DNA of 64,000 nucleotides, taken from Candidatus Shapirobacteria bacterium (GTDB lineage: Bacteria; Patescibacteriota; Microgenomatia; 0-14-0-10-38-17). Below the pieces are notes generated by a model. It was not told where the DNA came from, ran no database searches, and was given only the letters and a program-made list of their open reading frames with translations. Positions 41,048-64,000 of the stretch are shown here, in pieces; positions within the stretch are counted from its first letter, which is position 1, and every line of letters begins with the position of its first letter. The DNA is taken from the NCBI GenBank assembly GCA_018052565.1, contig JAGPNC010000002.1:6648-70647 (forward strand), given 5' to 3'. Both the position numbers and the translations under genes were made by a program.

Positions 41048-41776
41048 ATGAAAGGAGTTATTTTGGCAGGAGGTTTAGGCACACGTCTTTACCCTCTCAC
41101 TTGGGCGACAAACAAGCATCTTTTGCCCATTTTTGATAAACCAATGATTTTTTACCCGATTAACACTTTGGTTAAGGCGGGAATTAAAGAAATCTTGGTG
41201 GTTACTGGTGGGCCGCATGCCGGCCATTTTCTTCAGGTTTTAAAAAATGGTAAAGAGCTAGGCCTAAAGCATTTAGAATATGCTTACCAGGAAGGAGAAG
41301 GTGGTATTGCCGCGGCGTTATCCTTGGCCGAAGACTTTGCCGATGGGGGAGCGTTGGCGGTGGTTTTAGGCGATAACACCACCGATGCTGACATTTCTTC
41401 AGCGGTGAAAAATTTTCGGGGAGGAGCGACAGTTTTTTTGAAAAAAGTGCCTGATCCCCAGCGTTTTGGTGTGCCTGTTTTTGACCAAAAAAACTCAAAA
41501 AAGATTATCAAGATTGAAGAAAAACCGGCAAAGCCGCAGTCAAATTTTGCCGTTACCGGTCTCTATCTTTATGATAACCAAGTTTTTAAAATTATTAAAA
41601 CTCTCAAGCCATCGGCGCGGGGAGAGTTAGAGATAACCGATGTTAACAATTATTATCTTAAAGAGGGAAAGCTTACTTGGTTTAACCTTAGCGGTTTTTG
41701 GTCCGACGCGGGCACTTTCGAAAGCCTTTTTCGGGCTAATAAATATTGGGCGGAGAAGAAGATGAAGCAACCATAA
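41048..41776 (+). CDS. rmlA: sugar-1-phosphate nucleotidyltransferase, short-form glucose-1-phosphate thymidylyltransferase-like
   Basis: MKGVILAGGLGTRLYPLT...K.LLPI.DKPMI.YPI matches the RmlA/GlmU N-terminal signature. It sits in a locus with rmlBCD. Confidence 0.7.
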   Translation: MKGVILAGGLGTRLYPLTWATNKHLLPIFDKPMIFYPINTLVKAGIKEILVVTGGPHAGHFLQVLKNGKELGLKHLEYAYQEGEGGIAAALSLAEDFADGGALAVVLGDNTTDADISSAVKNFRGGATVFLKKVPDPQRFGVPVFDQKNSKKIIKIEEKPAKPQSNFAVTGLYLYDNQVFKIIKTLKPSARGELEITDVNNYYLKEGKLTWFNLSGFWSDAGTFESLFRANKYWAEKKMKQP

Positions 41777-41795
41777 TAACAGTTTTGAGGAGGTA

Positions 41796-42178: not shown

Positions 42179-42261
42179 GATAAGGAGATAGTGTGGACAA
42201 ATTCAGGATGATACCAAACTAAATTTAGAAATAGTACAAAGATTGTGATTGTTATATTTAA

Positions 42262-43665
42262 TTAAGTTCCCTTAATAACGGCTAAAGGCTTAAGCCGGGC
42301 AACTTTAGAGGTGAGCCCTTCTTTAACTAAAACATCAACTACTTCTTCGATGTCTTTATAGGCTCCGGGGGCTTCATCGGCAATTTTATGAAAGGGGAGA
42401 TTATAAATTATTTTCCCCATTGATTTTTCAAACTGGGGAAGACTGATATTTCTTTGGGCGGCGCGGCGGGACATCAGCCGGCCAGCGCCATGGTTAACGG
42501 AGTGGAAGGTATCCTTATTTTTAGAAGTGCCTACCACTACATACGAAGCGGTTCCCATGCTGCCGGGAATTAGGGCGGGGTGGCCGGTTTTAACAAAAGA
42601 GGGGGGATTTTGGGGGTGGTTAGGGGGAAGGGCGCGGGTGGCTCCTTTGCGATGGACTAAAACTTTTTGGCCAAGGTGATTTTCCCATTTGGCAATATTA
42701 TGAGCGACATCATAAAGAAGATAGAGGGGATCATTGTTGCCAAAGGTTTCCCGCCAAGCTTGGCGGACAAAATGGGTGATAATTTGCCGGTTTACAAAGG
42801 CAAAATTAACACAGGCGGCCATGGCGCCAAAATAACGTTCTCCTTCTGGGGTGGTGACAGGAAGAGCGGCTAGGCCTTGGTTAGGGATTGTTAGTTGGTA
42901 TTTTTCTTTTTTCCGCCAAAGAATTTGGGTGTAATCAAGGCAAGTTTGGTGGCCTAAGGCGCGGGAGCCGGTATGAATCATGACGGCGATTTGGTTAGGG
43001 AAAAGGCCGAATGCTTGGGCGATTTGCTTATTAAAAATCCGATCTACCTTTTGGATTTCGATAAAATGATTACCAGAGCCGAGAGTGCCCAGTTCGTTTT
43101 TAGCGCGGCTAATAGCTTTAGTGGAAAGGCAGGAAAATTCTGCTTCTTCCATGCGACCGTTTTCCTCGGTTCTTTCCAAATCTTCTCTCTGCGCCAAGCC
43201 CTTTTCTACCATATAAAAAAGTCCTTTCCGGCAAACTTTTTCTAGAGAAAGGCCAAGATGCCCTTTCTGCTGTCCTCCCAAGCCTAAGGGGACAAATTGG
43301 CTGATCTTTTCGATTAATTGCCGTAATAGAGAAGGGGTGAAAACTTCTTTGTCGTAAACTTGCTGGGAAAGAAGAAGGCGCACGCCGCAATTAATATCCA
43401 TTCCCACAGCGCCAGCAGAAACTAATCCTTGCGTTGCCATCACGCCACCAATTGGCAGGCCAAAACCTTCGTGGATATCCGGCATTCCCAATACTGGTGA
43501 AATTACTTTTGGTAAACAGGAGGCGGCAATTAATTGTTCCAAGCTCCTATCTTCCTGGATTGGCTTTAAGAGTTTTTCGGAGGCGTAGATGACGACTTCG
43601 GCCTGCATTAACCCGCTTTTTTTAATCCGCCATTTTTGAGGGGAGAGAGACTCAAGGCTAAACAT
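42262..43665 (-). CDS. rtcB: RNA-splicing ligase RtcB
   Basis: Metal and GMP-histidine motifs: DIHEGFGLPIGGV, HTGSRALGHQ, HNIAKWENH, NHGAGR. Confidence 0.9.
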   Translation of the reverse strand: MFSLESLSPQKWRIKKSGLMQAEVVIYASEKLLKPIQEDRSLEQLIAASCLPKVISPVLGMPDIHEGFGLPIGGVMATQGLVSAGAVGMDINCGVRLLLSQQVYDKEVFTPSLLRQLIEKISQFVPLGLGGQQKGHLGLSLEKVCRKGLFYMVEKGLAQREDLERTEENGRMEEAEFSCLSTKAISRAKNELGTLGSGNHFIEIQKVDRIFNKQIAQAFGLFPNQIAVMIHTGSRALGHQTCLDYTQILWRKKEKYQLTIPNQGLAALPVTTPEGERYFGAMAACVNFAFVNRQIITHFVRQAWRETFGNNDPLYLLYDVAHNIAKWENHLGQKVLVHRKGATRALPPNHPQNPPSFVKTGHPALIPGSMGTASYVVVGTSKNKDTFHSVNHGAGRLMSRRAAQRNISLPQFEKSMGKIIYNLPFHKIADEAPGAYKDIEEVVDVLVKEGLTSKVARLKPLAVIKGT

Positions 43666-43805
43666 TATTGCTCAGAATGATATAATTAAATAGAGCTAAA
43701 TTGGTTTTAAATTATTCTAAGTTAAAAGTTTTTTATCTTAGTTTTTAATTTTATTTGTCTCCTTGGGAGAGATAATTTTAACTTTTAAATTTTCCTTTGT
43801 TTATT

Positions 43806-44309
43806 ATGGCGGAAGAGAAAATTTTTTTCAATAATCCTATTTTAGGGAGAAAATCACTGACGGAGGTGGTGGAGGAAATTGTTTCCTTTATTGGCAGCGA
43901 TCCGGGGTCTTTTTACCATTTGATTATCGGCACCGACTCCCAAGATCACGCCATGGAAAAAGCCGATGGCTATCTTAATTTGGTTTCGGCGATTGTTATT
44001 TATCGCGAAGGACGGGGAGGTCGTTATTTTTGGCGGCGGCAAAGGCTGCCTCATTCCCGAAACCTGCGGGAAAAAATTTATCAGGAAACACTGACATCGC
44101 TTGACTTGGCGGAGAAGCTGGTGCCTTTTTTACAACAAAAGCTTAATGGTAATGAATATGAGTTAGAGATTCATATTGATGTGGGGAATGCCGGTCCTAC
44201 CCGCGAGATGATCCGTGAGCTGGTGGCGATGGTTAATAGTAATGGTTTTTTGGCTAAAACAAAGCCGGAGTCTTATGGCGCCACCTGCGTGGCTGACAAA
44301 TACACGTAA
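43806..44309 (+). CDS. hypothetical protein (possible RNase-H-like/YkuK-type fold) divergent from rtcB
   Basis: ORF of about 168 aa containing YHLIIGTDSQ and VSAIVIYREGRGGRYFW. No confident family assignment; it is not an archease. Confidence 0.4.
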   Translation: MAEEKIFFNNPILGRKSLTEVVEEIVSFIGSDPGSFYHLIIGTDSQDHAMEKADGYLNLVSAIVIYREGRGGRYFWRRQRLPHSRNLREKIYQETLTSLDLAEKLVPFLQQKLNGNEYELEIHIDVGNAGPTREMIRELVAMVNSNGFLAKTKPESYGATCVADKYT

Positions 44310-44311
44310 AA

Positions 44312-44490
44312 AAAGTTAAAAGTAAGGCAAATCGTAAAAAAGCAAAGATTAAAAATAAAAACAACAAACAGTAATTAGCAACTCGTAATTAAAAAATAGT
44401 TTTGTCTCTGGTAATTAGCAAGGCTTTGAGCTATAAACTTTTGACTTTTAATTTGAAATTTTGACTTTTTAATTTTAAATTTTGAATTTT
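44312..44490. repeat. AAAAGT/ACTTTT hexamer hairpin with long internal spacer
   Basis: aaaaagttaaaagtaaggcaaatcgtaaaaaagcaaagattaaaaataaaaac ... cttttgacttttaatttgaaattttgactttttaattttaaattttgaatttt. Confidence 0.75.
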
Positions 44491-44493
44491 GTT

Positions 44494-45510
44494 ATGAGGT
44501 TGCTTGTTACCGGCGGGGCGGGTTTTATTGGCACTAATTTTATCCGCTACTGGGTTAAAAATCATCCCCAAGACAAGATTGTTAATCTTGACAAGCTCAC
44601 CTACGCCGGTGATCGGCAAAATTTAGCGGACCTGGAGAACACTTCTTCCTATTGTTTTGTTAAGGGCGATATCGGCGATCCCGAATTGGTAGACAAGCTG
44701 ATGAAAGAGGTTGACACAGTGATAAACTTTGCGGCCGAAAGTCATGTTGATCGTTCAATTGATAATCCCGAAGTTTTTTTAAAAACTAATATTTTGGGGA
44801 CTTTTAACTTGCTCGAGGCAGCGTTGAAAAATAAAGTTAAGCGGTTTCATCATATTTCAACCGATGAAGTTTTTGGCGAGCTTTCCTTAAAATCAAAAAG
44901 AAAGTTTAACGAAAAAACGAAATTTTCTCCCCGAAGTCCTTATTCTGCTTCTAAAGCCGGTTCCGACCATTTGGTTTTAAGTTATTACCACACCTATGGG
45001 CTACCGGTAACGATTACCAATTGTTCCAATAATTACGGCCCTTATCAGTATCCGGAAAAATTTATCCCCCGCATGATTACCAATCTTTTGGAGGGTAAGA
45101 AAATTCCTATCTACGGTGACGGCAAATATGTTCGCGATTGGCTTTATGTTGATGATCATGTGCGGGCGATTGAGGCGGTTTTGTTTTACGGCAAGCCGGG
45201 GCAAACTTATTGCGTGGGTGGGTTAACTAAAGATGTCAGCAATCTTGATCTGGCGAAAATGATTCTAAAGATTATGGGCAAAGGCGAAGATTATTTAGAA
45301 TTTGTGGCCGATCGGGCGGGCCATGACCGGCGCTATGCCGTTGATTGGCAAAAGATTAAGGATAAACTTGGTTGGCAGCCCCAAGAAACAATTGAATCGG
45401 GGTTGGAAAAAACAGTTTCTTGGTATTGCCAAAATAAGCTGTGGTGGCAGAAAAAAAAGAAAGAAGCGGAAAATTTTTACCAAAAATTAGCCGCCAAAAA
45501 ATTTAAATGA
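44494..45510 (+). CDS. rmlB: dTDP-glucose 4,6-dehydratase
   Basis: LVTGGAGFIGTNF Rossmann fold, catalytic YSASKAGSDHLV. Length and order match rmlBCD. Confidence 0.9.
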   Translation: MRLLVTGGAGFIGTNFIRYWVKNHPQDKIVNLDKLTYAGDRQNLADLENTSSYCFVKGDIGDPELVDKLMKEVDTVINFAAESHVDRSIDNPEVFLKTNILGTFNLLEAALKNKVKRFHHISTDEVFGELSLKSKRKFNEKTKFSPRSPYSASKAGSDHLVLSYYHTYGLPVTITNCSNNYGPYQYPEKFIPRMITNLLEGKKIPIYGDGKYVRDWLYVDDHVRAIEAVLFYGKPGQTYCVGGLTKDVSNLDLAKMILKIMGKGEDYLEFVADRAGHDRRYAVDWQKIKDKLGWQPQETIESGLEKTVSWYCQNKLWWQKKKKEAENFYQKLAAKKFK

Positions 45511-46073
45511 ATTTTAAAAAGCTTAAAATTTCGGGGCTAATCGTCGTTGAGCCGGATGTTTTTGGCGACGAAAGAGGGTTCTTTTTAGAATCTTATAACC
45601 GGGAAAAATTTGCTAAAGGAGGGATAAGCGTTAATTTTGTCCAAGATAATCATTCCCGTTCTTCTCGGGGGGTTCTGCGGGGCCTTCATTTTCAAAAAGC
45701 TTCTTTTGCTCAAGATAAATTAGTGCGGGTGGTGCGGGGAGAAGTTTTTGATGTTGCCGTTGATCTTCGGCCCGGCTCTCCCACCTTGGGCCAATGGGAA
45801 GCAGTGATTCTTTCGGAAGAAAATAAGAAAATGTTTTTTATTCCTCAGGGTTTTGCTCATGGGTTTTTAGTCTTAAGCCCCTTAGCCGATTTTGAGTATA
45901 AGGTGAGTAATTTTTATTCGCCGCAAGACGAGATGGGCATTATTTTCAACGACCCCGAGATTAACATTTCTTGGCCTTTGGCCAAAGAAGAGCTGATTTT
46001 GTCCGCCAAAGATAAGAATTGGCCGTTATTTTCTCAAATTAAAGATAACTTAAAGAAAATATGGGGAAAATAA
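45507..46073 (+). CDS. rmlC: dTDP-4-dehydrorhamnose 3,5-epimerase
   Basis: RGLHFQ and a cupin fold (VFDVAVDLR..SPT.G...). It overlaps rmlB by 4 nt. Confidence 0.85.
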   Translation: MNFKKLKISGLIVVEPDVFGDERGFFLESYNREKFAKGGISVNFVQDNHSRSSRGVLRGLHFQKASFAQDKLVRVVRGEVFDVAVDLRPGSPTLGQWEAVILSEENKKMFFIPQGFAHGFLVLSPLADFEYKVSNFYSPQDEMGIIFNDPEINISWPLAKEELILSAKDKNWPLFSQIKDNLKKIWGK

Positions 46074-46951
46074 AAATTATCGGTACTGGCTTAAGCGGCT
46101 TAGTGGGCTCGCGTATTGGAGAAATTCTTCGGGGCACCTACTCGTTTGTTGATTTTTCTCTCGAGACGGGGGTTGATATTTTGGACATTAAGTCTTTAGA
46201 AAAGCAATTTTTAGAAAATAAGGAAGCAAAGGCGCTGATTCATTTAGCGGCTTTTACTGACACGAATGCTGCTTGGCAAGAGCGGGGAGATAAAAACGGC
46301 CTGTGTTATCGTCTTAATGTTTTGGGGACCAAAAATATTATCAAGCTTTGTCAAGAATATGGCCAGTATTTAATTTATGTTTCTACGGACTTTGTTTTTT
46401 CCGGCAAAAAAGAAGGTGTTTATACCGAAAAAGATACTCCTGATCCGATTGAGTGGTATGGGCAAACTAAACGGTGGGCTGAAGAAACGGTTTTGGAAAG
46501 TGGACTGGCCGCGGCAATTATTCGTCTTTCTTATCCTTTTCGGGCCTCATTTCCGGGCAAAAAAGATTTAGTGCGCAAAATTATTGAGGGGCTAAGGGAA
46601 AAAACGCTTTATCCTCTTTTTGCTGATCAAGTTATTACCCCTACCTTTATTGATGACTTTGCGGACGGAATTGACTATTTCTTAAAAGAAAAACCAACCG
46701 GCATTTTCCATTTGGTGGGGGAGAGCCATCTTTCTCCCTACGGGGTGGGAAAAGAGGTGGCGCGGACTTTTGGTTTTGATCCTAAGTTAGTAAAGAAAGG
46801 AAGCCTGCGAGATTATGAACGAAATGCTCCTCCAGGTTCGCGGCCCTTCCAGAAAAATTTAGCTCTTGATAACCAGAAAATTACTTCTTTAGGAATAAAA
46901 ATGCTTCCCTTTGCGGCCGCGCTCAAAAAAGTTAGAAAACAACTCAGCTAA
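46061..46951 (+). CDS. rmlD: dTDP-4-dehydrorhamnose reductase
   Basis: Rossmann IIGTGLSGLVGSRI, STDFVFSG...Y.E.D, and YGQTKRWAE (the YxxxK triad). Confidence 0.8.
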   Translation: MGKIKIIGTGLSGLVGSRIGEILRGTYSFVDFSLETGVDILDIKSLEKQFLENKEAKALIHLAAFTDTNAAWQERGDKNGLCYRLNVLGTKNIIKLCQEYGQYLIYVSTDFVFSGKKEGVYTEKDTPDPIEWYGQTKRWAEETVLESGLAAAIIRLSYPFRASFPGKKDLVRKIIEGLREKTLYPLFADQVITPTFIDDFADGIDYFLKEKPTGIFHLVGESHLSPYGVGKEVARTFGFDPKLVKKGSLRDYERNAPPGSRPFQKNLALDNQKITSLGIKMLPFAAALKKVRKQLS

Positions 46952-47982
46952 GTGAATATTTTCTCGGCCAAAAGAATAACGCCTCCTGTCACTAAGGGAA
47001 TAAAGAGATTATCGTTGATCCGTTTATTATTAATTTTTGGTTCGCTGAATTCTAAAATGGTGGTAGTAAGGATGGCGGGGGCCAGAAATTTTAAGGGCGC
47101 ATAGGGGAGAGAGACGGTGGTGGTGGCAATGGCGCTGGCAAAGGCAGCGCTCCAGCGTTTCTTTAAAGAATGACCGTTATTAAGGTAATAACCGGCGATA
47201 GCATTAACCGAATCGCCTACCGCTAAACTTAAAATTGCCACGGTGGCAACGGGAAGAGGAAAAACAAGAGTAGCGATTAAACTGCTCCAGGTAAAAAGTA
47301 GTGGTCCGGCTCCTAAAAACTTAGGTAATGGTTTCCTTTCAAAGTAAATAATTAAATTGTTCAAGGGCACAAAAGGTAAAAGGTGGTTTAACAAGAGAAG
47401 GATAGTTAAGAGAAAAGTAAAGAGAGTAAAGTAGCGGGGGGTTAAAATTTGGTAATTAATCGCAAGCGCGAGAGACAAGCCGTAAAAAAGATGAACGATT
47501 TTTCTTCTTAAGTTGATGTTTTTGCCCCAGTCAGAAGCGCTTTTGGTTTGAGAGAGAGAATAAAATGACCAGAAGACAGCGGTGGCAAAAAAGAAGCCGC
47601 CGGCAACATCGGTAACGTGATGTAGTCCTAGGGCAACGCGGGAATAAGCGACTAGAAAAGCTCCCAAGAAGCCTAAGGGGGAAAATTTTGGCCAAAGAAC
47701 GATGATTGTCCAAGCAATAACGGTCGCTACTGCCGCATGGAGGGAGGGGAAAGCAAAATCGGTGGGGATGTTGGCAGTTACTCCCAGTATGGTTGGGTTT
47801 TCAACAAATGGTCGGCTTATTTGGGTTAAATCTTTAACCACTTTTCCCCCGAATAAAGTAAAAATCAAGGCAGGGGCAAAAATGGGGAGGAAAAACTCTT
47901 TTTTAAATTTAAGGATAAAAAAAACAAACAAACCAACTAATGCTGGTAAAAGCCATGGTGAATTAAGGATGGCAAGGCTCAT
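46948..47982 (-). CDS. fusion membrane protein: PAP2 phosphatase domain plus CdsA/DolK-like (CTP-dependent polyprenol kinase family) domain
   Basis: N-terminal PAP2 motifs KDLTQISRPF, PSLHAAV and SRVALGLHHVTDVAGG. The C-terminal half has additional transmembrane segments and LAVGDSVNAIAGYY, a GDxxAxxxG motif of the dolichol/polyprenol kinase-CdsA superfamily. Confidence 0.5.
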   Translation of the reverse strand: MSLAILNSPWLLPALVGLFVFFILKFKKEFFLPIFAPALIFTLFGGKVVKDLTQISRPFVENPTILGVTANIPTDFAFPSLHAAVATVIAWTIIVLWPKFSPLGFLGAFLVAYSRVALGLHHVTDVAGGFFFATAVFWSFYSLSQTKSASDWGKNINLRRKIVHLFYGLSLALAINYQILTPRYFTLFTFLLTILLLLNHLLPFVPLNNLIIYFERKPLPKFLGAGPLLFTWSSLIATLVFPLPVATVAILSLAVGDSVNAIAGYYLNNGHSLKKRWSAAFASAIATTTVSLPYAPLKFLAPAILTTTILEFSEPKINNKRINDNLFIPLVTGGVILLAEKIFT

Positions 47983-52897: not shown

Positions 52898-54193
52898 ATG
52901 AAAATTGCAGTTGTCGGCGCCGGTTACGTTGGGTTAACGTGGGCGGCCGTGTTGGCTTCATTGAGCCATAAGGTCCTTTTGGTAGAAAACAACCCGAAGA
53001 AATTGGCCAAGCTTAAGAAGGGCCAGCCGCCGTTTTTTGAACCCGGCCTCGAGCCACTTTTAAAAAAAGAAATTAAGAGTAAACGACTTTCTTTTTCTTC
53101 ATCAATCAAAGATCTTCAGGAAAAACCGGAGGTTGTTTTTATTTGTGTGGGCACTCCTTCTCGCCAAGACGGTTCAATTGACCTTTCTTATGTTTTTGCC
53201 GTGGCCAAGGAATTAGGGAAAAATCTTTGGCCTGGCCAGACCACGGTAGTTCTTAAGAGTACCGTTTTGCCGGGGACAACTAAAAAGGTTGAAGAAATAA
53301 TTAGCCAAAATAAAAATAAAAAAGCCACTTTTAGCTTAGCTTTTTGTCCGGAATTTTTAAGAGAAGGCAAGGCGGTTGAAGACAGCTTTCGCCCCAACCG
53401 AGTTATTATTGGCAGCAATGATAAGAGAGCAATTGCTATTCTTAAAAAAATTCACGCTCCTTTTGGAGCGCCAATTTTAGCGGTAAAAACGGAAAGCGCC
53501 GAAGTTACTAAATATGCGGCTAATGCCTATTTGGCCTTACGGATTGTTTTTGCTAATCAAATTGCTGATTTAGCCGAGAGGGTAGGGGCGGAGGTAGAAG
53601 AGGTGATTGCAGGCATCGGACTTGACCCGCGGATTGGCAGCGCTTATTGGTATCCCGGTTTAGGCTATGGTGGCTCTTGCTTTCCCAAGGATGTAGCCGC
53701 CTTAGCTTCTTTTAGTACTAAAAAGGGGCTAAAACAGTCGCTTTTTTCTTTTATGGATCATTACAACCAAAGCCGCCCCGAGAAAAAGTTAGCGGAGATT
53801 GAAGAAAAATGGGGTCAAGCGCTTGGAAAAAGAGTGGCGGTTTGGGGGTTAGCCTGTAAGCAGGGAACTGATGACGTGCGGGGTTCGGCGGCGCTTTTGA
53901 TGGCCGATAAATTATCAAAAAAAGGAGCGGCGGTTTTTGCTTTTGACGCCCTGGCAGAAGAGAATGCCCAAAGGGCATGCCCCAACGTTTGTTATTCTCC
54001 CGACCCCTATTCGGTAGTGAAGAACGTAGATTGGCTTTTGGTTTTAAGCGACGATCCTCTTTTTGCGAAGGCAAACTTTGCGAGAGTGAAGAAATTGATG
54101 AGGGGAAGAAAAATTTTTGACGCCCGTAATATTTTGCCTAAAGAAGAACTTAAAAAAATGGGCTTTGACTACTTGGGTGTCGGCAGAATTTAA
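52898..54193 (+). CDS. ugd: UDP-glucose 6-dehydrogenase family (UDP-sugar dehydrogenase)
   Basis: MKIAVVGAGYVGL NAD fold and catalytic GGSCFPKD. Confidence 0.85.
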   Translation: MKIAVVGAGYVGLTWAAVLASLSHKVLLVENNPKKLAKLKKGQPPFFEPGLEPLLKKEIKSKRLSFSSSIKDLQEKPEVVFICVGTPSRQDGSIDLSYVFAVAKELGKNLWPGQTTVVLKSTVLPGTTKKVEEIISQNKNKKATFSLAFCPEFLREGKAVEDSFRPNRVIIGSNDKRAIAILKKIHAPFGAPILAVKTESAEVTKYAANAYLALRIVFANQIADLAERVGAEVEEVIAGIGLDPRIGSAYWYPGLGYGGSCFPKDVAALASFSTKKGLKQSLFSFMDHYNQSRPEKKLAEIEEKWGQALGKRVAVWGLACKQGTDDVRGSAALLMADKLSKKGAAVFAFDALAEENAQRACPNVCYSPDPYSVVKNVDWLLVLSDDPLFAKANFARVKKLMRGRKIFDARNILPKEELKKMGFDYLGVGRI

Positions 54194-54613: not shown

Positions 54614-55756
54614 ATGGCTAAAGAAAAAGCTGTCGTCATCATTCCCACCTATAACGAGCGGGAAAATATTGGCCGGATGATTGAGATTTTGGAGAAAGAG
54701 ATTTTCCCGCAAGTTAAGGATTGGGAAATGGCCATTTTGGTGGTTGATGACCATTCTCCCGACGGCACTGCTGAGGTTGTGCGGGAGAAGATGAAGGTTT
54801 ATCCTAACATTGAGCTTTCTTTAGGGGAAAAGCAGGGCTTGGGAGCGGCTTACGCGCGGGGAATGAAATATGCGATGGAAAAAATGAATGCGGATTGGGT
54901 GATTGAATTTGACGCCGATTTCCAGCATGATCCGGCGTACATCCCCGCCCTTTTAAAAGCCGCTAAAGAAGACTATGACTATGTGGTCGGCTCCCGTTAT
55001 GTCCCCGGTGGGAAAGTTCCCCAGGATTGGAATTTTTCTCGCCGCTTAATTAGCTCTTTGGGTAGTTTGGTGGCTCGTTTTGTTCTTTTCTTCCCTTTTG
55101 AATTTAAAAACGCCCCGCGCGATTTAACTTCCGGCCTTAAGGCAACAAAGGTAAAGGGATTTTTGGAAAAAATTGACCTAGACCATCTTCTTTCTAAGGG
55201 CTATGCTTATAAAATCGAGATTTTTTACCGGATGGTAAAACTTGGGGCGAGGGTAAAAGAAATTCCCATTGAGTTTAAAAACCGGGAAAAAGGGGAATCA
55301 AAGATGCCGCCAAAGAATTTAACCGATTCTCTGAAAGTGGTTATTAAGCTTCGTCTTCAAGATGAGAAAACGCAAAGTTTTTTAAAGTTTGCCGTGGTGG
55401 GTTTTGTGGGCTATTTGGTGAATGCGCTTTCTTTGGCGCTTTTTACTTCTTTTTCTTGGCCAGAGGCTCTTTGTTGGCTTTTGTCAACCGAGCTGGCGAT
55501 TATTTCTAATTTTACCTGGAACAACCTTTGGACTTTTGCTAAGGAAAAGTTTACCAAGCCTTCATTGGTTTTGAAGAAATTCCTCCAGTTTAACTTAACT
55601 TCGGCGGGAGCCTTAGTTATCCAAACGGCGATGGGGACACTTTTAGTTAGCCTCTTTGGCCCCCACCGCCAACTTTACTTGCCCCTGATTATTGTTTTTA
55701 TGGTTTTACCTTATAACTGGTTGATGTATAACCGGGTCATTTGGAAGAAAAAGTAA
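54614..55756 (+). CDS. GT2 (Dpm1-like polyprenyl-phosphate hexose synthase) fused to C-terminal GtrA-like membrane domain
   Basis: VVIIPTYNERENI...LVVDDHSPDGT...EFDADFQHDP. The C-terminal 120 aa form four transmembrane helices: FLKFAVVGFVGYLVNALSLALFT...LVIQTAMGTLLVSLF (GtrA-type). Confidence 0.75.
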   Translation: MAKEKAVVIIPTYNERENIGRMIEILEKEIFPQVKDWEMAILVVDDHSPDGTAEVVREKMKVYPNIELSLGEKQGLGAAYARGMKYAMEKMNADWVIEFDADFQHDPAYIPALLKAAKEDYDYVVGSRYVPGGKVPQDWNFSRRLISSLGSLVARFVLFFPFEFKNAPRDLTSGLKATKVKGFLEKIDLDHLLSKGYAYKIEIFYRMVKLGARVKEIPIEFKNREKGESKMPPKNLTDSLKVVIKLRLQDEKTQSFLKFAVVGFVGYLVNALSLALFTSFSWPEALCWLLSTELAIISNFTWNNLWTFAKEKFTKPSLVLKKFLQFNLTSAGALVIQTAMGTLLVSLFGPHRQLYLPLIIVFMVLPYNWLMYNRVIWKKK

Positions 55757-55763
55757 CCCAGAG

Positions 55764-56972
55764 TCACAAGTAAGGCGCCCAATCAGCTAAGGGCATGATA
55801 TTAAAGCTAACGAAATTGATGGCGTAAAGGAAAAGAGGCGGCAAAAGGATAATAAAGGGAATTAAGAATTGCTTCTTTTGAAAAAAATTCTCTCCGCCCA
55901 ACAACAGGAATGGCAGGGCGGGAATCATATAGCGGGCAATATCGCGGTGGGAAACAAAGATTAGAGAAAGATAAAAAATTGCCGGGAAGATAAACAAGAC
56001 ATCATTTTTATATTTTTGCCAAAGAGAGAAAAGAAGAATTCCCCCCAAAAGATAATAAAGATAAACATCCTCCAGCCAAATTGTCCCGACCCATTCTTCT
56101 TTGAAGTCAAAAACTTGGAATGGCGGCCAGAAAAGGTGGATGTTGTCGCCGGTTTTAAAATAAGCCCAAAAATCGCCCGTGGTAATTTGGTAAAGAAAAA
56201 AGACGCTGATGATGCCCAGCGGTGTTAAAAGAATGGGCCAAAATTTTTTGAAAGCTTCTTTGGCCTTGGCCTTGTCTTTTAAGAAAGAAGAAGACTTTAG
56301 AGTCTTAATTAAGGCGGTTAAGCCAAGGGCGCCAGCTAAAAGTACGCCCGGGCTTTTAACCGTTTGGGACAAAATCGCCATGAAGGCGCTTTTGCCATAG
56401 TTTTCTTTTTTAAAAAAGTAAGCCGCACTAATAATAAAAAATAAGAAGAGCGGCTCTGGGCTGGGGATGTTTTTGACTACTAGCCACCGGGCGGGGAAGA
56501 AAGCAAAAAGGGAACTTAAGAGCAAGCTTGTTTTTTTATTTTTACTAACAAGCAGAAGCAATTTATAGAAAGCAAAAATCGCCATCAGGCTGGTGACCTG
56601 AGTGGCAATAATAGCCGCATGGGGAAAGTCAACTTTTGGCAAGCGGGAAAAAAGCCAGATTAAGGCCGGGTAGGCAGGGAAATGAGCAGGGAAATAACTT
56701 GGCGGTAGAGTGTTGGGGAAAAAGGCGTTAATTTTTTGGGGATCATACCAAGTTTTGGCGACGATAATATAATTTAGGCTGTCAAAATTTAGCAAAATGG
56801 TAGAGAAGTTAAATTTTTCGGCATAATTTAAGCCGAAGAAGGAGTTAAGGTGAAAAACAAAAGGAAAATATAAAATAGCCGTTGAAAAAAGAGAGACTAA
56901 AGTTAGTGCCAAAAAGGGGTGAGTCAGAGCCCAGTGTCCAAGGCTTTGGGAAAATTTTTTAATTTTAGCCAT
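55764..56972 (-). CDS. polytopic membrane protein, candidate GT-C-type glycosyltransferase or polymerase
   Basis: 402 aa, about 11 transmembrane segments, conserved-looking loop HRDIARYMIPALP. Confidence 0.4.
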   Translation of the reverse strand: MAKIKKFSQSLGHWALTHPFLALTLVSLFSTAILYFPFVFHLNSFFGLNYAEKFNFSTILLNFDSLNYIIVAKTWYDPQKINAFFPNTLPPSYFPAHFPAYPALIWLFSRLPKVDFPHAAIIATQVTSLMAIFAFYKLLLLVSKNKKTSLLLSSLFAFFPARWLVVKNIPSPEPLFLFFIISAAYFFKKENYGKSAFMAILSQTVKSPGVLLAGALGLTALIKTLKSSSFLKDKAKAKEAFKKFWPILLTPLGIISVFFLYQITTGDFWAYFKTGDNIHLFWPPFQVFDFKEEWVGTIWLEDVYLYYLLGGILLFSLWQKYKNDVLFIFPAIFYLSLIFVSHRDIARYMIPALPFLLLGGENFFQKKQFLIPFIILLPPLFLYAINFVSFNIMPLADWAPYL

Positions 56973-57004
56973 AATTCTTTTTTTAGTATAACAGAATTGT
57001 TAAT

Positions 57005-57125
57005 TTAAAAGTTAAAATTCAAAATGCAAAATTCAAAATTGCAAGTCAAAAGTTAAAAGTTTTTGCTTTAATTTTGAATTTTTAATTGCAATTTTGATTT
57101 TTGACTTTTAACTTTTGAATTTAAA
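57005..57125. repeat. AAAAGT/ACTTTT hexamer hairpin
   Basis: aaaagttaaaattcaaaatgcaaaattcaaaattgcaagtcaaaagttaaaagt ... ttttgaatttttaattgcaattttgatttttgacttttaacttttgaattt. Confidence 0.8.
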
Positions 57126-57193
57126 AAAGTTCTAGCTGCGTTGAAAGAAACGATAACATCCGAATAATAACAGTTGTGTTAAGATAATAAAGA

Positions 57194-58693
57194 ATGATGG
57201 TGAAACATAAAGTGAAATTTCTCCACTGGGTCCCGCTTGTCTTGCTTATTTTTCTCTCCTTTTTTCTTCGCTTTTATAAGCTTGAGGAGTTAACTACTTT
57301 TCTTGATGATCAGGGGCGAGATGTTTTGAAGGCAGCCCAGATTATCAAAGAAAAAAATTTGCCGTTTATTGGCCCCATGGCTTCAATTGGCAATGTTTAT
57401 TTGGGGCCTCTTTATTATTGGGCAATTGCTCCTTTCCTTTGGCTTTTTAATTTTAATCCGGTGGGGCCGGTGGTTTTGGTGGCTCTTTTGGGAGTGCTAA
57501 CTAATATTTTGCTTTTCTTTTTCCTTTGGCGCTATTTTGATAAAACCAGCGCTTTTTTTGCCAGTTTTCTTTACGCTCTCTCACCTTTAATTTTGCAAAA
57601 TAGCCGTTTTTCCTGGAATCCCAACCCCGTGCCCTTCTTTACTCTTCTTTGGTTTATCCTCATGCTAAAATTTTTTGACGAAGAAAAAGGGCGGTGGCTT
57701 TTTGGGGCGGGCATTTGCTTGGGGATTTTGCTCCAGCTTCATTATGTCACCGGCCTTCTTTTGATCTTTACCGTTATTGGGTTTTTATTTTGGTTGGTTA
57801 AAAAAAGCCGCCGAGAAAGTTTTTCTGCTAGCTTTTTGAAGCCCTTTGGCTGGTTAATTTTAGGGGTAATTATTCCCCTAATTCCCTTTATTCTCTTTGA
57901 GTTTAAAAATTATTTTCTTAATACGCGGGCGGCTTGGGAATTTCTTTTTGGTGGCCAAAAAGAGGGAGCCTTGCTGGTAAATCCGCTCGAGCGCGCCCTT
58001 GCCCTTTTAAATCGTTTTCTCCAGGAACTTTTAGGCCTTTCTCGGCCTTCGCCTATACCCATAATTTATTTTGCTTCGACTATTTTTTCTCTTTTTTTGG
58101 CGGGAAGAAAAAAATTAGGCGAAGAGAGAAATAAAGTAGTTTTTCCCGCAATTTTAATTTTAATTTCCACCCCTCTTTTGCTTTGTTTGGCGGTTAAGGA
58201 CGAAATCCATCTTCATTATATTGGCATTCTTTACCCGTTTATTTTTATTATTGTGGCGGCGGGAGACTATTTATGGCGTAAGATTAAGCTTTGGCCATTA
58301 GTAATTTTAAACAGTGCTCTTTTTCTTTGGGCTGGTTATCAGATGGCCACTTGGGATTATCAGCGAATTATTAAGGCGGATAGTAATCACCAGATAGAAA
58401 AAGCAAAGCTGACGGCTGAATATATTGAAAAGGAGGCAGAGGACAAAAATATTTTTGTGGCCTCCTTAACTGGCTCTCCCTCTGCTTATCAATTTCGTTA
58501 TTTTCTTTACGTTCATGGTTTTGCCACTGATTCTTTACACCCTTCCTCTATTTTTGCCGTGTGTTGTGATAATCCTTGCCAGCCAGAAAAAAGCATTATT
58601 TGGGAATTTGCCCAATTTGGGGCTTTAAAAACGGTGAGCGAAAAAATGCTTCCTTATGGAGTGTGGGTGTATGAATTGAAAATAGAAGATTAA
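57194..58693 (+). CDS. GT-C-fold membrane glycosyltransferase (PMT/ArnT-like)
   Basis: 499 aa, about 12 transmembrane segments, first loop LDDQGRDVL (a DD/DE motif typical of GT-C enzymes), no soluble catalytic domain. Confidence 0.5.
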   Translation: MMVKHKVKFLHWVPLVLLIFLSFFLRFYKLEELTTFLDDQGRDVLKAAQIIKEKNLPFIGPMASIGNVYLGPLYYWAIAPFLWLFNFNPVGPVVLVALLGVLTNILLFFFLWRYFDKTSAFFASFLYALSPLILQNSRFSWNPNPVPFFTLLWFILMLKFFDEEKGRWLFGAGICLGILLQLHYVTGLLLIFTVIGFLFWLVKKSRRESFSASFLKPFGWLILGVIIPLIPFILFEFKNYFLNTRAAWEFLFGGQKEGALLVNPLERALALLNRFLQELLGLSRPSPIPIIYFASTIFSLFLAGRKKLGEERNKVVFPAILILISTPLLLCLAVKDEIHLHYIGILYPFIFIIVAAGDYLWRKIKLWPLVILNSALFLWAGYQMATWDYQRIIKADSNHQIEKAKLTAEYIEKEAEDKNIFVASLTGSPSAYQFRYFLYVHGFATDSLHPSSIFAVCCDNPCQPEKSIIWEFAQFGALKTVSEKMLPYGVWVYELKIED

Positions 58694-59672: not shown

Positions 59673-59677
59673 TTTTT

Positions 59678-60817: not shown

Positions 60818-60838
60818 TAATTTGCTATAATTCTAGTT

Positions 60839-62344
60839 ATGAAAAAATTTATTTCCGGTTGTAGCCGTAAGTGGTGGCTATGGCTGGCAGCAGGGATAAT
60901 TCTTTTGTTTTTAACAAGAATAATTAATTTAACCCGTCTACCGATTTTTTGCGATGAAGCGATTTACATTCGCTGGTCGCAGATTGCCTGGAAAGAAGCC
61001 TCTTTACGCTTTATCTCCTTAACTGATGGCAAACAACCCTTTCAAACCTGGATTACCATCCCCTTTTTAAAAGTTTTTCCCGATCCGCTGGTGGCGGGAC
61101 GTCTGCCAGCCGCGCTGGCGGGGATTGCTTTACCTTTCATCTTAACTGCCTTGTCTTTTTTACTTTTTCCCAAGAACAAGAGAGTGCCTCTTTTTGTCTT
61201 TTTCTTGGCAGTTTTTTGTCCCTATCTCTTACTTTATTCCCGGATGGCCTTAGCCGAAGCCTGGTTAACTCTTTTTGCCGCCGGAGCGGTTTTCTTTTCT
61301 TATTTGTTGGCCAAAACAAGGCGTTTAGATGTAGCTCTTTTGGCTGGCGGTTGGTTAGGATTAGCCTTATTAGTTAAATCCCAAGCCTGGTTTTTTGTTC
61401 TTCTTTTCCCCCTTAGCCTTTTATTTGTGCCGGTTGATTTTTCTAAAAAAAATTTTCGTGAAGCAGGGAAATTCTTGGGATTGTTTTTGGTGGCGGTTTT
61501 TGTTGCTTATTTAATTTATAACGTTCAGAGATTATCACCATGGATGAATATGATTGGCCAAAAGAATCAAGGTTTTGTTACCTCCCCCTTGAAAGCGCTG
61601 AAAGAATTACCTATTTTTTGGCAAAACCTCAGGGCTTCTTCTCGCTGGTTTTGGGTTTATTTAACCTGGCCGGTTTGTTTGCTTTCTTTAGCGGGTTTGT
61701 TTTTATGGTTTAAAAAAGATTGGCGGCAGGGGCTTTTTTTGGCCGGTTGGTTTTTCCTGCCTTTTTTGGCCACTAATTTAATTGCCCGGGTTTACAACTC
61801 TCGTTATCTGGCTTTCTTGGCTTTTTTGCCCCTGCTTTGGGCGGCTTTTGGGCTTGCCTGGCTTAAGAAAAAGATTAGCTCCCGATTTTTATGGGGGGTC
61901 ACCCTGCTTTTGATTTTCTTCTTGCCATCTCTAAGATGCTATCAGCTAATTTTTATTCCGGAAGAATTTCCTTTTACCAAAACGGACCGGGGCTATCTTG
62001 AGGGGTGGACTGCCGGTTATGGGATTAAAGAAGTTGTTGCTAACTTGAGGGAAGCTTCCCAAGATAAGCCGGTAATAGTTGGCACCGAGGGCAATTTTGG
62101 TCTTCTATCCCAAGGGCTGGAAATTTATTTTGCCTTTGACCCTAAGGTAGAAGTGGTGGGTTTTTATCCTCTCCCCCAAGAATTGCCGCCGGCTGACTGG
62201 CTTGAGAAAACAAAGGAGAAAAGAGTCTTTTTTGTGATTAATAATACGCCGGGAGATTTCTCCAAAGAGCACTTTGTTTTACGAGGAGAATACCCCAAGG
62301 TTGGTGACAGCGGCTCGCTGCGATTATATGAAGTGGTGGAGTAA
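60839..62344 (+). CDS. GT-C-fold membrane glycosyltransferase (ArnT/PMT family-like)
   Basis: The first periplasmic loop is PIFCDEAIYIRWSQIAWKE (DExxY-type motif). About 12 transmembrane segments and a C-terminal soluble domain of about 130 aa. Confidence 0.55.
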   Translation: MKKFISGCSRKWWLWLAAGIILLFLTRIINLTRLPIFCDEAIYIRWSQIAWKEASLRFISLTDGKQPFQTWITIPFLKVFPDPLVAGRLPAALAGIALPFILTALSFLLFPKNKRVPLFVFFLAVFCPYLLLYSRMALAEAWLTLFAAGAVFFSYLLAKTRRLDVALLAGGWLGLALLVKSQAWFFVLLFPLSLLFVPVDFSKKNFREAGKFLGLFLVAVFVAYLIYNVQRLSPWMNMIGQKNQGFVTSPLKALKELPIFWQNLRASSRWFWVYLTWPVCLLSLAGLFLWFKKDWRQGLFLAGWFFLPFLATNLIARVYNSRYLAFLAFLPLLWAAFGLAWLKKKISSRFLWGVTLLLIFFLPSLRCYQLIFIPEEFPFTKTDRGYLEGWTAGYGIKEVVANLREASQDKPVIVGTEGNFGLLSQGLEIYFAFDPKVEVVGFYPLPQELPPADWLEKTKEKRVFFVINNTPGDFSKEHFVLRGEYPKVGDSGSLRLYEVVE

Positions 62345-64000
62345 AATTGCAAAATACCAGAATTTTCTTTGGCTAGGGCTGTTTTTGACGGCCAACGTGG
62401 TTCTTTTGTTGCCTGTTTTAGGCAGGGACCAGTTTTTCCCTTCTCATGACGATACCTGGATTATCCGCCTCCAGCAGTTCGACCGGGCGATTAAGCTGGA
62501 ACAGATCCCGCCGCGCTTGGCTCCTGACATGGCTTTTGGCTTTGGCTATCCGCTTTTTGTTTACTATTCGCCTCTTTTTACTTTTCTTTCCTGGCTTTTT
62601 TTAAAAATCGTTGGTTCTTACTCTTTGGCGGTAGTTTTAACGATTGTTTTGGTCAATTTTTTGGGAACTTGGGGGATGTTTCTTTTGGCAAAGAAATTCT
62701 TTGGTCTTGCGGGAGGGCTTGTTGCCGCGTTGGCCTTCACTTTTTTGCCCTACCGGGCATTGGATGTTTATGTGCGTGGCGCCTTCGCAGAACTAACCGC
62801 TTTCTCTCTTTTGCCTTTTTTCTTTTACTTTTTCTTTGGTCTTTTCTCCGGCGAAAAAAGAAAGAAAAACGCCCTGGGGCTTGTTTTAACCACCGTTGGC
62901 CTTGTTCTTTCCCATAACTTGATGCTCATTATTTTAGCTTATCTTTCCCTGCCGCTCTTAATTTTAGCTTTTTGGCAGTTATTTCGCCAACGCCTTCCCT
63001 GGCGCTGGCCGATCTTAGTTATCTTTCTTGTTCTCTTCCTAAGCGCTTTTTATTGGTTGCCAATGATAGTCGGTTTGGATAATGTTCAGGCAATTAATCA
63101 GGCCCAAAAAACTTCTTTTGCCGATCATTTTGTTTATCTTGGCCAGCTTTGGAATTGGCCGTGGGGTTTTGGCGGTTCCGACATCGGTTTAGCTGACGGG
63201 ATGTCTTTTAAAATTGGTAAAGTTCATTTGCTCTTAGCCTTAGGGGGATTATTAGCTTTATTCTTAGGCAAAAAATGGCCAAAAGAAATTATCTGTTTGC
63301 TAATTATAGGTTTTTTATCGTTTTTCTTTTGTTTATCCTCTTCTTCATTTTTTTGGAAAAATCTCCCTTATTTAGCGGTGGTTCAATTTCCGTGGCGTTT
63401 CTTGGGACCCTTAAGCCTGGTAGTTTCTTTTTTCGCCGGAGGAATTATTCTTCTACCAGAAGCAATTCATTTTTTGAAATTTCCCGCCATCCTTAAAAAA
63501 TTTGGGATGGGATTAATTATTTTGGTAAGCATCAGCGGCTTAATATATTTTAATTTAAAATATTTTGTCCCGCGATTTAAGATTTATCAGGCCGATGAAG
63601 TTTATTTAACTCCGGAAAGGATCGCTCAGGCAGCAAAGGTGATCCCGGAATATTTGCCCCGTTGGGCAAGCTCCTGGCCAGAGGAAAAGCCGGTACAAGC
63701 CGTAGAGGTAGAGAAGGGGAAGGTGAAAATATCTCTTGACTCCCCTTATAAAATTATTTTTAAAGTTGAAGAAGAGAAGCCGGAATCGATCGTTGTTAAC
63801 CGCTTTTATTTTCCCGGCTGGCAAGCCAAAAGCGGTTCGGGAGAAAAAATAAGCCTTGGGCCGGAAGAAGGGAGAGGCAGAATTGTTTTCGCTTCTGAGG
63901 TTGAAAAAGATGAGGAGATATCAGTTTTTTTTGCCCCCACTTTAGTAGAAAAAATAAGCATAGGCTTATCGGTTTTGGGGTTAGTTCTTTTGCTGTTGGT
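62328..64000 (+). CDS. large polytopic membrane protein (candidate GT-C/YfhO-like), 3' end outside window
   Basis: ATG at 62328 in frame 0 overlaps the previous gene by 17 nt. I checked the frame as open at several points through 64000 (…RDQFFPSHDDTWIIRLQQFDRAIKLEQIPPRL… / …RFYFPGWQAKSGSGEKISLGPEEGRGRIVFASE…). It is missing from the ORF track only because it has no stop inside the window. Confidence 0.55.
   Translation, partial: MKWWSKIAKYQNFLWLGLFLTANVVLLLPVLGRDQFFPSHDDTWIIRLQQFDRAIKLEQIPPRLAPDMAFGFGYPLFVYYSPLFTFLSWLFLKIVGSYSLAVVLTIVLVNFLGTWGMFLLAKKFFGLAGGLVAALAFTFLPYRALDVYVRGAFAELTAFSLLPFFFYFFFGLFSGEKRKKNALGLVLTTVGLVLSHNLMLIILAYLSLPLLILAFWQLFRQRLPWRWPILVIFLVLFLSAFYWLPMIVGLDNVQAINQAQKTSFADHFVYLGQLWNWPWGFGGSDIGLADGMSFKIGKVHLLLALGGLLALFLGKKWPKEIICLLIIGFLSFFFCLSSSSFFWKNLPYLAVVQFPWRFLGPLSLVVSFFAGGIILLPEAIHFLKFPAILKKFGMGLIILVSISGLIYFNLKYFVPRFKIYQADEVYLTPERIAQAAKVIPEYLPRWASSWPEEKPVQAVEVEKGKVKISLDSPYKIIFKVEEEKPESIVVNRFYFPGWQAKSGSGEKISLGPEEGRGRIVFASEVEKDEEISVFFAPTLVEKISIGLSVLGLVLLLL

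Follow-up and report, generated by a model that had tools for sequence, protein, structure and literature searches.

A Microgenomates-wide cluster of GT-C-type glycosyltransferase genes in Candidatus Shapirobacteria and its probable role in glycosylating the cell envelope

Why does a contig of Candidatus Shapirobacteria encode so many dissimilar membrane glycosyltransferases of the GT-C type, and what might these enzymes build? We analyzed a 64-kb window (the whole stretch of DNA examined here, with a GC content of ~41%) from a metagenome-assembled genome (MAG) contig of this organism, which belongs to the Microgenomates group of the Patescibacteria, or Candidate Phyla Radiation (CPR). An initial annotation described the segment at 41-64 kb as a cell-envelope glycosylation region in which nucleotide-sugar genes are combined with Dpm1-type family 2 glycosyltransferases (GT2s) and many GT-C-type proteins. 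Profile and fold evidence bears out this description, and the open reading frames (ORFs) that it listed are present where it placed them. The 41-64 kb segment encodes RmlA-like, RmlB, RmlC, and RmlD proteins, a UDP-glucose 6-dehydrogenase (UGDH), two Dpm1/GtrB-type GT2s, and six polytopic GT-C-type proteins. A seventh GT-C protein, with TPR repeats, and a third GT2 are encoded at 3.2-5.6 kb. GT-C enzymes account for seven of the roughly 65 genes of the contig. We consider it likely that the region is the Shapirobacteria version of a Microgenomates-wide cluster, whose enzymes add sugars to the cell envelope at the outer side of the cytoplasmic membrane.

The seven GT-C proteins, named GT-C_A to GT-C_G (Table 1), contain 6-13 hydrophobic segments according to hydropathy, and the predicted structures of GT-C_B and GT-C_D are all-helical bundles. 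Family searches place the PMT_2 domain (PF13231, gathering cutoff 26.1 bits) above its cutoff in GT-C_C, GT-C_E, and GT-C_G, whereas GT-C_A reaches only 7.1 bits. No profile assigns any of the membrane proteins to transporters. GT-C_B and GT-C_D lack a match in the local copy of Pfam at E-values up to 10. Domains PF02366 PMT, MIR, and PMT_4TMC were not detected at E ≤0.01 in any protein of the window, and precomputed PF02366 matches are limited to a few distant homologs of GT-C_B. None of the GT-Cs thus qualifies for family GT39, and none scores at the equivalog level. Sequence and profile searches with GT-C_B, GT-C_C, GT-C_D, and GT-C_E identified no meaningful relative among the sequences of the PDB.

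The AlphaFold model of GT-C_B, calculated from an alignment of 46 homologs, has a predicted local distance difference test (pLDDT) score of 93.5. The 26 best Foldseek matches of the model in the PDB are all proteins with the GT-C fold and have a probability of 1.0, whereas transporters of the MFS, ABC, and MATE types reach at most 0.13. The fold neighbors include STT3/PglB, PimE, ALG12, PIG-M, ALG9, PIG-U, ArnT, DPY19, ALG6, and Pmt4. Residues N62 and D64 in the first loop of GT-C_B are invariant, and the protein has a weak match to NF046093, a 'cell surface glycopolymer formation protein'. The GT-C fold is thus established from a model for GT-C_B, and GT-C_A, GT-C_C, GT-C_E, GT-C_F, and GT-C_G are tied to it solely through PMT_2 matches and comparisons of family profiles.

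The profiles of the GT-C families were built from homologs in related loci and compared using hhalign. Pairwise BLAST connects only GT-C_A with GT-C_C (27% identity over 222 residues), in agreement with the initial annotation, which had called the paralogs dissimilar. It had also called them unrelated, and this does not hold. The hhalign probabilities are 100% for A-C, 99.2% for C-E, 98.4% for C-F, 97.4% for A-F, and 94.1% for E-F, followed by 92.4% for A-E, 91.4% for B-C, and 88.3% for B-E. Judged from these profiles, the paralogs are mostly not unrelated: GT-C_A, GT-C_C, GT-C_E, GT-C_F, and more weakly GT-C_B are linked, and GT-C_D stands apart. The PF26314 assignment of GT-C_D is shared by all 120 of its homologs. 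Its NCBIfam scores are far from the cutoff for MptA (TIGR03459; E 9.3e-14, 51.2 versus 439 bits) and below that for MptB (NF038066; E 1.1e-6, 27.4 versus 40 bits). By these scores, GT-C_D is classified as a member of the MptA_B family and not as an ortholog of MptA or MptB.

All seven proteins possess conserved acidic residues in the first extracytoplasmic loop, the outward orientation of which is predicted. The acidic motifs of the initial annotation take the form of a DD or DE dyad in four of the seven, and the remaining three have a single conserved Asp. The dyad is an invariant D39-E40 pair in GT-C_E and DD in both GT-C_F and GT-C_G. Residue D39 is invariant in the GT-C_C family, and GT-C_A retains the aligned Asp. 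In the GT-C_D family, D107 is invariant and D25 nearly so.

To place the array in its genomic context, we scanned species-representative genomes with the GT-C_B family alignment and mapped the window proteins onto six-frame ORFs of the fetched loci. Relatives of GT-C_B were detected at 540 or more genomic loci. We compared the gene order in 80 of them, from Shapiro-, Woese-, Collier-, and Blackburnbacteria and other Microgenomates. In the orientation of the window, the recurring order is (CAP ... rmlA-D), TrmD, the dolichol-phosphate-mannose synthase (DPMS)-type gene (+), GT-C_B (-), GT2 (+), one to four copies of GT-C_C (+), GT2 (+), GT-C_E (+), and GT-C_F (+). In 70 of 72 loci, the DPMS-type gene and GT-C_B converge, and a GT2 gene is located upstream of GT-C_B in 65 of 70. 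Complete 10-kb flanks are available for 41 loci, which contain a median of five GT-C genes (range 1-7) and three GT2 genes per ~21 kb. About 30 of the 80 loci have the rml operon beside the cluster. A Wzx-type flippase gene (Polysacc_synt_3, 144.9 bits) adjoins GT-C_F in 24 loci, among which are L013, L020, and the closest relatives, L002 and L007. In 13 loci, the flippase gene is followed by that of a protein of at least 621 residues without a Pfam match. Since the order is conserved in the 80 related loci, the genes are not grouped by chance. The GT-C array is a conserved hallmark of Microgenomates and not an oddity of one genome, which corrects the initial impression that the number of paralogs is unusual for a single tiny genome. 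No account of the present cluster from CPR, Patescibacteria, or Microgenomates was found in the open-access literature, which is not proof of novelty.

The Shapirobacteria version departs from the recurring order in several respects. A 221-nt gap (56973-57193) separates the divergent GT-C_B and GT-C_C genes, and the GT2 gene of the consensus is absent from it; by comparison with the related loci, this copy has been lost or moved. The genes of GT-C_A (3/80 loci), GT-C_D (4/80), UGDH (3/80), the pair of HIT proteins, and the PAP2 fusion protein are accessory, each being present in at most nine of the 80 loci. The pair of GT-C_G and its GT2 (3248-5595) is displaced by 57 kb from the main cluster. 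In locus L005, GT-C_G abuts the end of GT-C_F, and in L023 and L033 a GT2 gene is positioned just past the Wzx gene at the GT-C_F end. These positions indicate a rearrangement. Cluster-bearing third-party-annotation MAG records (L004, L005, L009, L010, L025, L060, and others) often bear the title 'uncultured Gammaproteobacteria' or 'Pseudomonadales', and there is one 'Bathyarchaeia' and one 'Spirochaetia' record; such records are probably mislabeled or chimeric bins.

The initial annotation's count of three Dpm1-type GT2s is correct, and their best family and PDB matches are all polyprenyl-phosphate sugar synthases (DPMS, GtrB, ArnC, PpgS, PgfS, AglJ). The DPMS-type enzyme aligns with dolichol-phosphate-mannose synthase of Pyrococcus furiosus (PDB 5MLZ) from end to end, including the transmembrane (TM) domain (E 3.6e-46; residues 17-389 against 24-372 of 374). 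The 'fusion' of GT2 and GtrA domains is therefore the native architecture of this enzyme type. Its best NCBIfam match is AglJ, with equivalog cutoffs not reached. The GT2 downstream of GT-C_C has PgfS as its best NCBIfam match, below the cutoff, and its GtrB match is sll0501. Enzymes of this kind are usually present in two copies per related locus. The third GT2, also devoid of TM helices, overlaps the start of GT-C_G by 13 nt. Both single-domain enzymes are probably polyprenyl-phosphate glycosyltransferases, as suggested by family matches that remain under equivalog cutoffs and in proteins without TM helices.

The genes for dTDP-L-rhamnose synthesis are represented by RmlB and RmlC, which exceed their equivalog cutoffs, and by RmlA and RmlD, for which the respective families are the best matches at scores below the cutoffs. 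The short RmlA covers positions 1-236 of the 286 positions of the TIGR01207 model. A 598-residue protein with tandem GT2 domain matches is encoded between TrmD and rmlD in five related loci (L023, L033, L058, L079, L031). This protein, encoded beside the rml operon, is a candidate cytoplasmic rhamnosyltransferase and is absent from the Shapirobacteria window.

The initial annotation proposed a fusion of PAP2 phosphatase and kinase. The PAP2 part is confirmed, with weak sub-cutoff matches to the undecaprenyl-diphosphatases SepP (44.6 bits) and PRK11837 (27.8 bits), and the kinase part is traceable at the superfamily level. The C-terminal 6-TM domain has no Pfam match even at E up to 10 and no solved relative among PDB sequences. 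It contains the conserved motifs RRKxxHLxYG, YFER, GDSxNAxxG, EPK, and DDNxxIP. A profile search retrieved 2597 relatives, which are either stand-alone proteins of ~195 residues or PAP2 fusions of ~380 residues. Among 100 stand-alone relatives, 19 match PF01148 CTP_transf_1 (best E 1.4e-6), the superfamily of CdsA, dolichol kinase, and phytol kinase, and the next most common family matches six; one homolog is named 'dolichol kinase' by the Joint Genome Institute. These remote relatives tie the domain to the CTP_transf_1/dolichol-kinase superfamily and make a kinase function plausible.

Table 1 Features of the glycosylation region and its surroundings in the 64-kb window.
Feature	Position	Strand	Supporting match
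GT-C_A, paralog of GT-C_C family, 511 aa	49512..51047	-	no Pfam match; hhalign 100%, E 1.4e-58 to C family
GT-C_B, compact, 402 aa, without Pfam family; anchor gene of conserved cluster	55764..56972	-	AlphaFold and Foldseek
GT-C_C, PMT_2-type, 499 aa, C-terminal extracytoplasmic domain	57194..58693	+	PF13231 47.9 bits > 26.1 cutoff
GT-C_D, compact MptA/MptB-family membrane glycosyltransferase, 379 aa	59678..60817	+	precomputed PF26314 MptA_B_family
GT-C_E, PMT_2-type, 501 aa	60839..62344	+	PF13231 37.5 bits > 26.1 cutoff; hhalign 99.2% to C
GT-C_F, 561 aa	62328..64000 (end 64013, 13 nt past window)	+	PTPS_related 22.9, PMT_2 21.9 bits, both sub-cutoff; hhalign 98.4% to C, 97.4% to A
GT-C_G, PMT_2 and C-terminal TPR repeats, 539 aa	3248..4867	-	PMT_2 31.0 bits > 26.1 cutoff; TPR families
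DPMS-type polyprenyl-phosphate glycosyltransferase, GT2 domain and 4-TM GtrA/DPMS domain	54614..55756	+	PF00535 92 bits, PF04138 65 bits
Dpm1/GtrB-type GT2, about 255 aa, without TM helices	58792..59559	+	PF00535 99 bits; best PDB: DPMS 5MLZ, GtrB 5EKP, ArnC
Dpm1-type GT2, 246 aa	4855..5595	-	PF00535 81.7 bits; best NCBIfam PpgS, dolichyl-phosphate hexose transferase, AglJ, all under cutoff
RmlA-like glucose-1-phosphate thymidylyltransferase, short form, 242 aa	41048..41776	+	PF00483 188 bits; best NCBIfam TIGR01207 rmlA 246.7 bits vs 360 cutoff
RmlB, dTDP-glucose 4,6-dehydratase	44482..45510	+	TIGR01181 487.9 bits > 365.1 cutoff
RmlC, dTDP-4-dehydrorhamnose 3,5-epimerase	45507..46073	+	TIGR01221 250.2 bits > 155.75 cutoff
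RmlD-like dTDP-4-dehydrorhamnose reductase	46061..46951	+	PF04321 155 bits; TIGR01214 146.8 bits < 224 cutoff
UDP-glucose 6-dehydrogenase (UGDH)	52898..54193	+	all three UDPG_MGDP_dh domains; TIGR03026 (NDP-sugar dehydrogenase family) 421 bits > 190 cutoff
PAP2 phosphatase (residues ~1-150) and 6-TM domain (residues ~155-344) fusion	46948..47982	-	PF01569 56.5 bits vs 27.2 cutoff
Candidate acceptor: membrane-anchored surface protein, lamin-tail domain (LTD), Pro/Thr-rich linker	35286..36638	+	LTD 46 bits
Candidate acceptor: secreted protein, Pro/Thr-rich linker, C-terminal TM anchor	37984..39543	+	no family match; Pro/Thr tract residues ~207-268

The starts given for the ORFs at 54614, 58792, 59678, and 37984 are the first ATG codons within slightly longer ORFs that begin with TTG or GTG.

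From family and fold identities and the conserved gene order, we infer a route of five steps together with its sugars and acceptors. Cytoplasmic enzymes would make dTDP-rhamnose (RmlABCD) and UDP-glucuronate (UGDH), and other activated sugars would be supplied from elsewhere in the genome. The three Dpm1/GtrB-type GT2s would each link a single sugar to polyprenyl phosphate in the inner leaflet. The lipid-linked sugar would then be flipped, for which the GtrA-like 4-TM domain of the DPMS-type enzyme and, in relatives, the adjacent Wzx-type protein are candidates. On the outside, the six or seven GT-Cs, each with a conserved Asp in the first loop, would pass the sugars to acceptors; that their donor is a polyprenyl-phosphate-linked sugar is suggested by the conserved adjacency to Dpm1-type GT2 genes. 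The fusion of PAP2 and dolichol-kinase-like domains may regenerate polyprenyl phosphate and so recycle the lipid carrier. Our best guess is that the compact GT-C_B and GT-C_D, which lack a soluble domain, act on lipid-linked or membrane-proximal glycans, like PimE and the ALG and PIG enzymes, and that the PMT_2-type GT-C_A, GT-C_C, GT-C_E, GT-C_F, and GT-C_G, with their C-terminal or TPR domains, decorate Pro/Thr-rich linkers, a wall polymer, or both. The mechanism by which a GT2 supplies a GT-C is the established polyprenyl-phosphate-sugar route, and the multi-GT-C array in minimal genomes is an uncharacterized, lineage-wide feature.

Several observations weigh against this interpretation. 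The activity of every member of the pathway is predicted from a sequence or a model. RmlA, RmlD, and the GT2s score below NCBIfam equivalog cutoffs, and their substrates are thus only predicted; there is no evident consumer of dTDP-rhamnose among the enzymes of the window. The model of GT-C_D has a pLDDT of 94.7, yet its Foldseek matches are weak (the best is PIG-M, E 0.64, probability 0.97), although the best ones are GT-C enzymes. The hhalign probability of GT-C_D with every other GT-C family is at most 8%, so that no profile link joins it to them. GT-C_D thereby appears as a separate lineage and serves as an internal control against TM-composition artifacts in the other profile links. The Wzx gene of the relatives is absent from the window, and no trace of it was found in the last 0.5 kb of the Shapirobacteria contig after GT-C_F, where the contig ends. 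The 23-kb interval is not one operon, because it also contains the unrelated housekeeping genes of RtcB, an RNaseH-like protein, TrmD, and two HIT proteins. Co-regulation of a region broken up in this manner is only putative, and a promoter and terminator scan of the window gave no signal above that of shuffled sequences.

The principal role of the cluster can be read in two ways, which are not mutually exclusive. We give them about equal weight, and neither quite reaches an even chance. According to the first, which is a serious possibility, the GT-Cs mainly O-glycosylate proteins by adding sugars to Ser/Thr residues of Pro/Thr-rich linkers, as modeled on actinobacterial Ppm1/Pmt and on the streptococcal GtrB/PgtC2 and Pgf systems. 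The initial annotation named secreted Pro/Thr-rich proteins as obvious substrates. Two such proteins are indeed encoded, the only ones with Pro/Thr-rich tracts in the 64 kb, at 1.5-6 kb upstream of rmlA; they are candidates rather than obvious substrates. A 30-residue stretch of the lamin-tail-domain protein consists to 73% of Pro, Thr, and Ser. Its homologs at syntenic positions in L026 and L061 share this Pro/Thr richness, as does the syntenic homolog of the second candidate in L005. Pro/Thr-rich ORFs number 13 among 1214 in the related loci, and several are located on the same side of the cluster. The PgfS match of the GT2 at 58792, the Asp-Glu dyad of GT-C_E, which is typical of protein O-mannosyltransferases (PMTs), and the TPR repeats of GT-C_G, a protein-binding module, are consistent with protein acceptors. 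There is also a precedent in streptococci, where a pair of GT2 and GT-C glycosylates extracytoplasmic Ser/Thr-rich regions (PMC12041528). However, the window proteins contain neither a Pfam PMT (PF02366) nor a MIR domain, and the family profiles of GT-C_C and GT-C_E find no solved PMT by sequence. Moreover, six or seven GT-Cs and three donor synthases exceed the needs of known systems, and the Wzx gene and rml operon in relatives point to glycan polymers.

The second reading, comparably probable, is that the cluster mainly produces a non-protein glycoconjugate outside the membrane, either a lipoglycan built stepwise or side chains on a rhamnose-containing wall polysaccharide or teichoic acid. 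Mycobacterial lipomannan (LM) and lipoarabinomannan (LAM), assembled by PimE and MptA/B/C, are the model of the former, and the GacI/GacL and CsbB/YfhO systems of side-chain decoration. As in mycobacteria, many GT-Cs are served by few donors, and GT-C_D belongs to the MptA_B family. GT-C_B and GT-C_D are compact, and the fold neighbors of GT-C_B include PimE, ALG, and PIG enzymes, whose substrates are lipid-linked glycans. The rml operon and Wzx-type flippase beside many of the related clusters, the tandem GT2 gene between TrmD and rmlD in five of them, and the weak glycopolymer match of GT-C_B to NF046093 also argue for a glycan product. Against it, GT-C_D is restricted to four of the 80 loci, and no priming phosphoglycosyl transferase, polymerase, LCP ligase, or cytoplasmic polymer glycosyltransferase is encoded in the 64-kb window. 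Since it lacks a phosphoglycosyl transferase, a polymerase, an LCP ligase, and STT3, a classical pathway of the Wzy or oligosaccharyltransferase (OST) type encoded in the window is disfavored. CPR bacteria have been reported to lack lipid synthesis (PMC12114108), and given this, a lipid anchor would have to be acquired.

We speculate further, and only tentatively, since we consider it rather unlikely, that Microgenomates possess a complex, lineage-specific surface glycan or lipoglycan built almost wholly at the outer side of the membrane by sequential GT-Cs, which would draw on a few polyprenyl-phosphate sugars in a LAM-like manner, and that one of the donors could be polyprenyl-phosphate rhamnose, which would be unprecedented. 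Such a donor is conceivable because the rml operon of the window is without an accompanying cytoplasmic rhamnosyltransferase.

It is highly improbable that the cluster performs N-glycosylation by an AglB/PglB oligosaccharyltransferase, with en bloc transfer of an oligosaccharide from a lipid diphosphate. The top Foldseek matches of GT-C_B are indeed STT3 and PglB, and the DPMS-type enzyme matches AglJ best. However, the likeness of GT-C_B to these enzymes is limited to the GT-C membrane core (TM-score about 0.5), for which PimE, ALG, PIG, ArnT, and Pmt score similarly, and the protein has no large C-terminal periplasmic domain. We rejected this explanation, because the window contains no STT3 family match, no WWDxG motif in any frame, and no phosphoglycosyl transferase, nor a set of cytoplasmic glycosyltransferases. 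Of the analogies drawn in the initial annotation, that with mycobacterial systems stands, in the form of the Ppm1/Pmt/Mpt network, and that with archaeal AglB does not. A role of the polytopic proteins in transport, lipid flipping, or membrane structure, with their clustering a coincidence, might be suggested by the best NCBIfam match of GT-C_C ('flippase activity-associated protein Agl23', 37 bits versus a cutoff of 126) and by the four of seven proteins without an above-threshold match in the local Pfam copy. This view can hardly be true and was rejected on account of the three PMT_2 matches above the cutoff, the hhalign links of GT-C_A and GT-C_F to these proteins, the GT-C-fold matches of GT-C_B, the invariant Asp in the first loop, and the conserved position beside polyprenyl-phosphate sugar synthases.

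The remainder of the window provides the setting of the glycosylation region. The first 33 kb encode housekeeping proteins, namely IscS/NifU, an ABC exporter pair, RuvABC, EF-P, Lon, GreA, tRNA synthetases, a MiaB-like protein, SecA, RF2, and FtsEX. Rfam and ARAGORN searches of the 64 kb yielded a single RNA gene, a tRNA-Glu (CTC) at 20859-20931 (-). Beyond 33 kb lies a group of surface proteins, comprising a coiled-coil M23 peptidase, the lamin-tail-domain protein, VanZ, the secreted protein without an assigned family, and a CAP-domain protein. FtsE, FtsX, and the M23 peptidase (32025-35050) form an EnvC-like arrangement directly before the Pro/Thr-rich surface proteins. The rml genes are split by those of RtcB RNA ligase (-) and a PF04308 RNaseH-like protein (+), at 42262-44309 between rmlA and rmlB; the latter is syntenic with rml genes in 14 of the 80 related loci. 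At 47979-48821 (-), a 280-residue protein with four hydrophobic segments is encoded, with no Pfam family at E up to 10 and homologs seen only in L002 and L007. The ORF of this protein shares 34 nt with TrmD and 4 nt with the start of the PAP2 fusion. Tandem HIT-family genes (51358-51753 and 51777-52181, both +) are situated between GT-C_A and UGDH. In nine of the 80 loci, a HIT gene is likewise found between the DPMS-type gene and TrmD, and a link of the HIT genes to nucleotide-sugar metabolism is possible.

CPR bacteria constitute a large share of bacterial diversity, have genomes smaller than 1 Mb, and are believed to live attached to other cells. Since the cluster is conserved in Shapiro-, Woese-, Collier-, and Blackburnbacteria, extracytoplasmic glycosylation stands out as a core function under selection in the lineage. 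If a LAM-like glycan of the speculative kind considered above is indeed made, it would be a main factor in the contacts of these ultra-small, probably host-dependent cells with others. The locus offers concrete targets for heterologous reconstitution, which does not require culturing of the organism: a GT-C family without a Pfam model but with a high-confidence structure prediction, three candidate lipid-sugar synthases, and defined Pro/Thr-rich candidate acceptors.

Elements of the Shapirobacteria cluster are recognizable in several known systems. The DPMS-type enzyme corresponds over its whole chain to Pyrococcus DPMS, with a catalytic GT2 and a 4-TM GtrA/DPMS domain; it differs in that its host is a bacterium and in that NCBIfam equivalog cutoffs are not met. 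ArnC/ArnT and Rhizobium RgtE/RgtA-D modify lipid A or the core of lipopolysaccharide (LPS) with 4-amino-4-deoxy-L-arabinose or galacturonic acid. The cluster shares with them the pairing of an ArnC-like GT2 with PMT_2-type GT-Cs, and UGDH is encoded directly upstream of the synthase. In contrast to these systems, the window contains no LPS pathway, ArnA, or ArnB, and UGDH is present in just three of the 80 related loci.

In mycobacteria and corynebacteria, Ppm1 supplies PimE, MptA, MptB, MptC, and Pmt for LM and LAM assembly and protein O-mannosylation, and secreted proteins rich in Pro and Thr are typical substrates of Pmt. The Shapirobacteria cluster resembles this network in its combination of few polyprenyl-phosphate sugar donors with many GT-C paralogs, one of which, GT-C_D, is in the MptA_B family. 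It is unlike the network in that GT-C_D is accessory and scores far under the MptA/MptB equivalog cutoffs, that there is no PF02366 PMT protein, and that no phosphatidylinositol mannoside (PIM) or inositol genes were seen in the window.

The GacI/GacL system and CsbB/GtcA/YfhO of Bacillus and Listeria represent Gtr-type, three-component extracytoplasmic glycosylation. The cluster is unlike Gtr-type systems in that a single region would have three synthases supplying six or seven GT-Cs, the GtrA-like module forms one protein with a synthase, the GT-C families have no characterized or solved relative detectable by sequence, and the genes belong to a CPR bacterium whose genome is below 1 Mb. It shares with these systems, including streptococcal GtrB with PgtC2 and PgfS/PgfM1/PgfM2 (PMC12041528), the combination of a GT2 lipid-sugar synthase, a flippase-like TM module (here the GtrA domain), and a GT-C, encoded by adjacent genes with Ser/Thr/Pro-rich surface proteins nearby.

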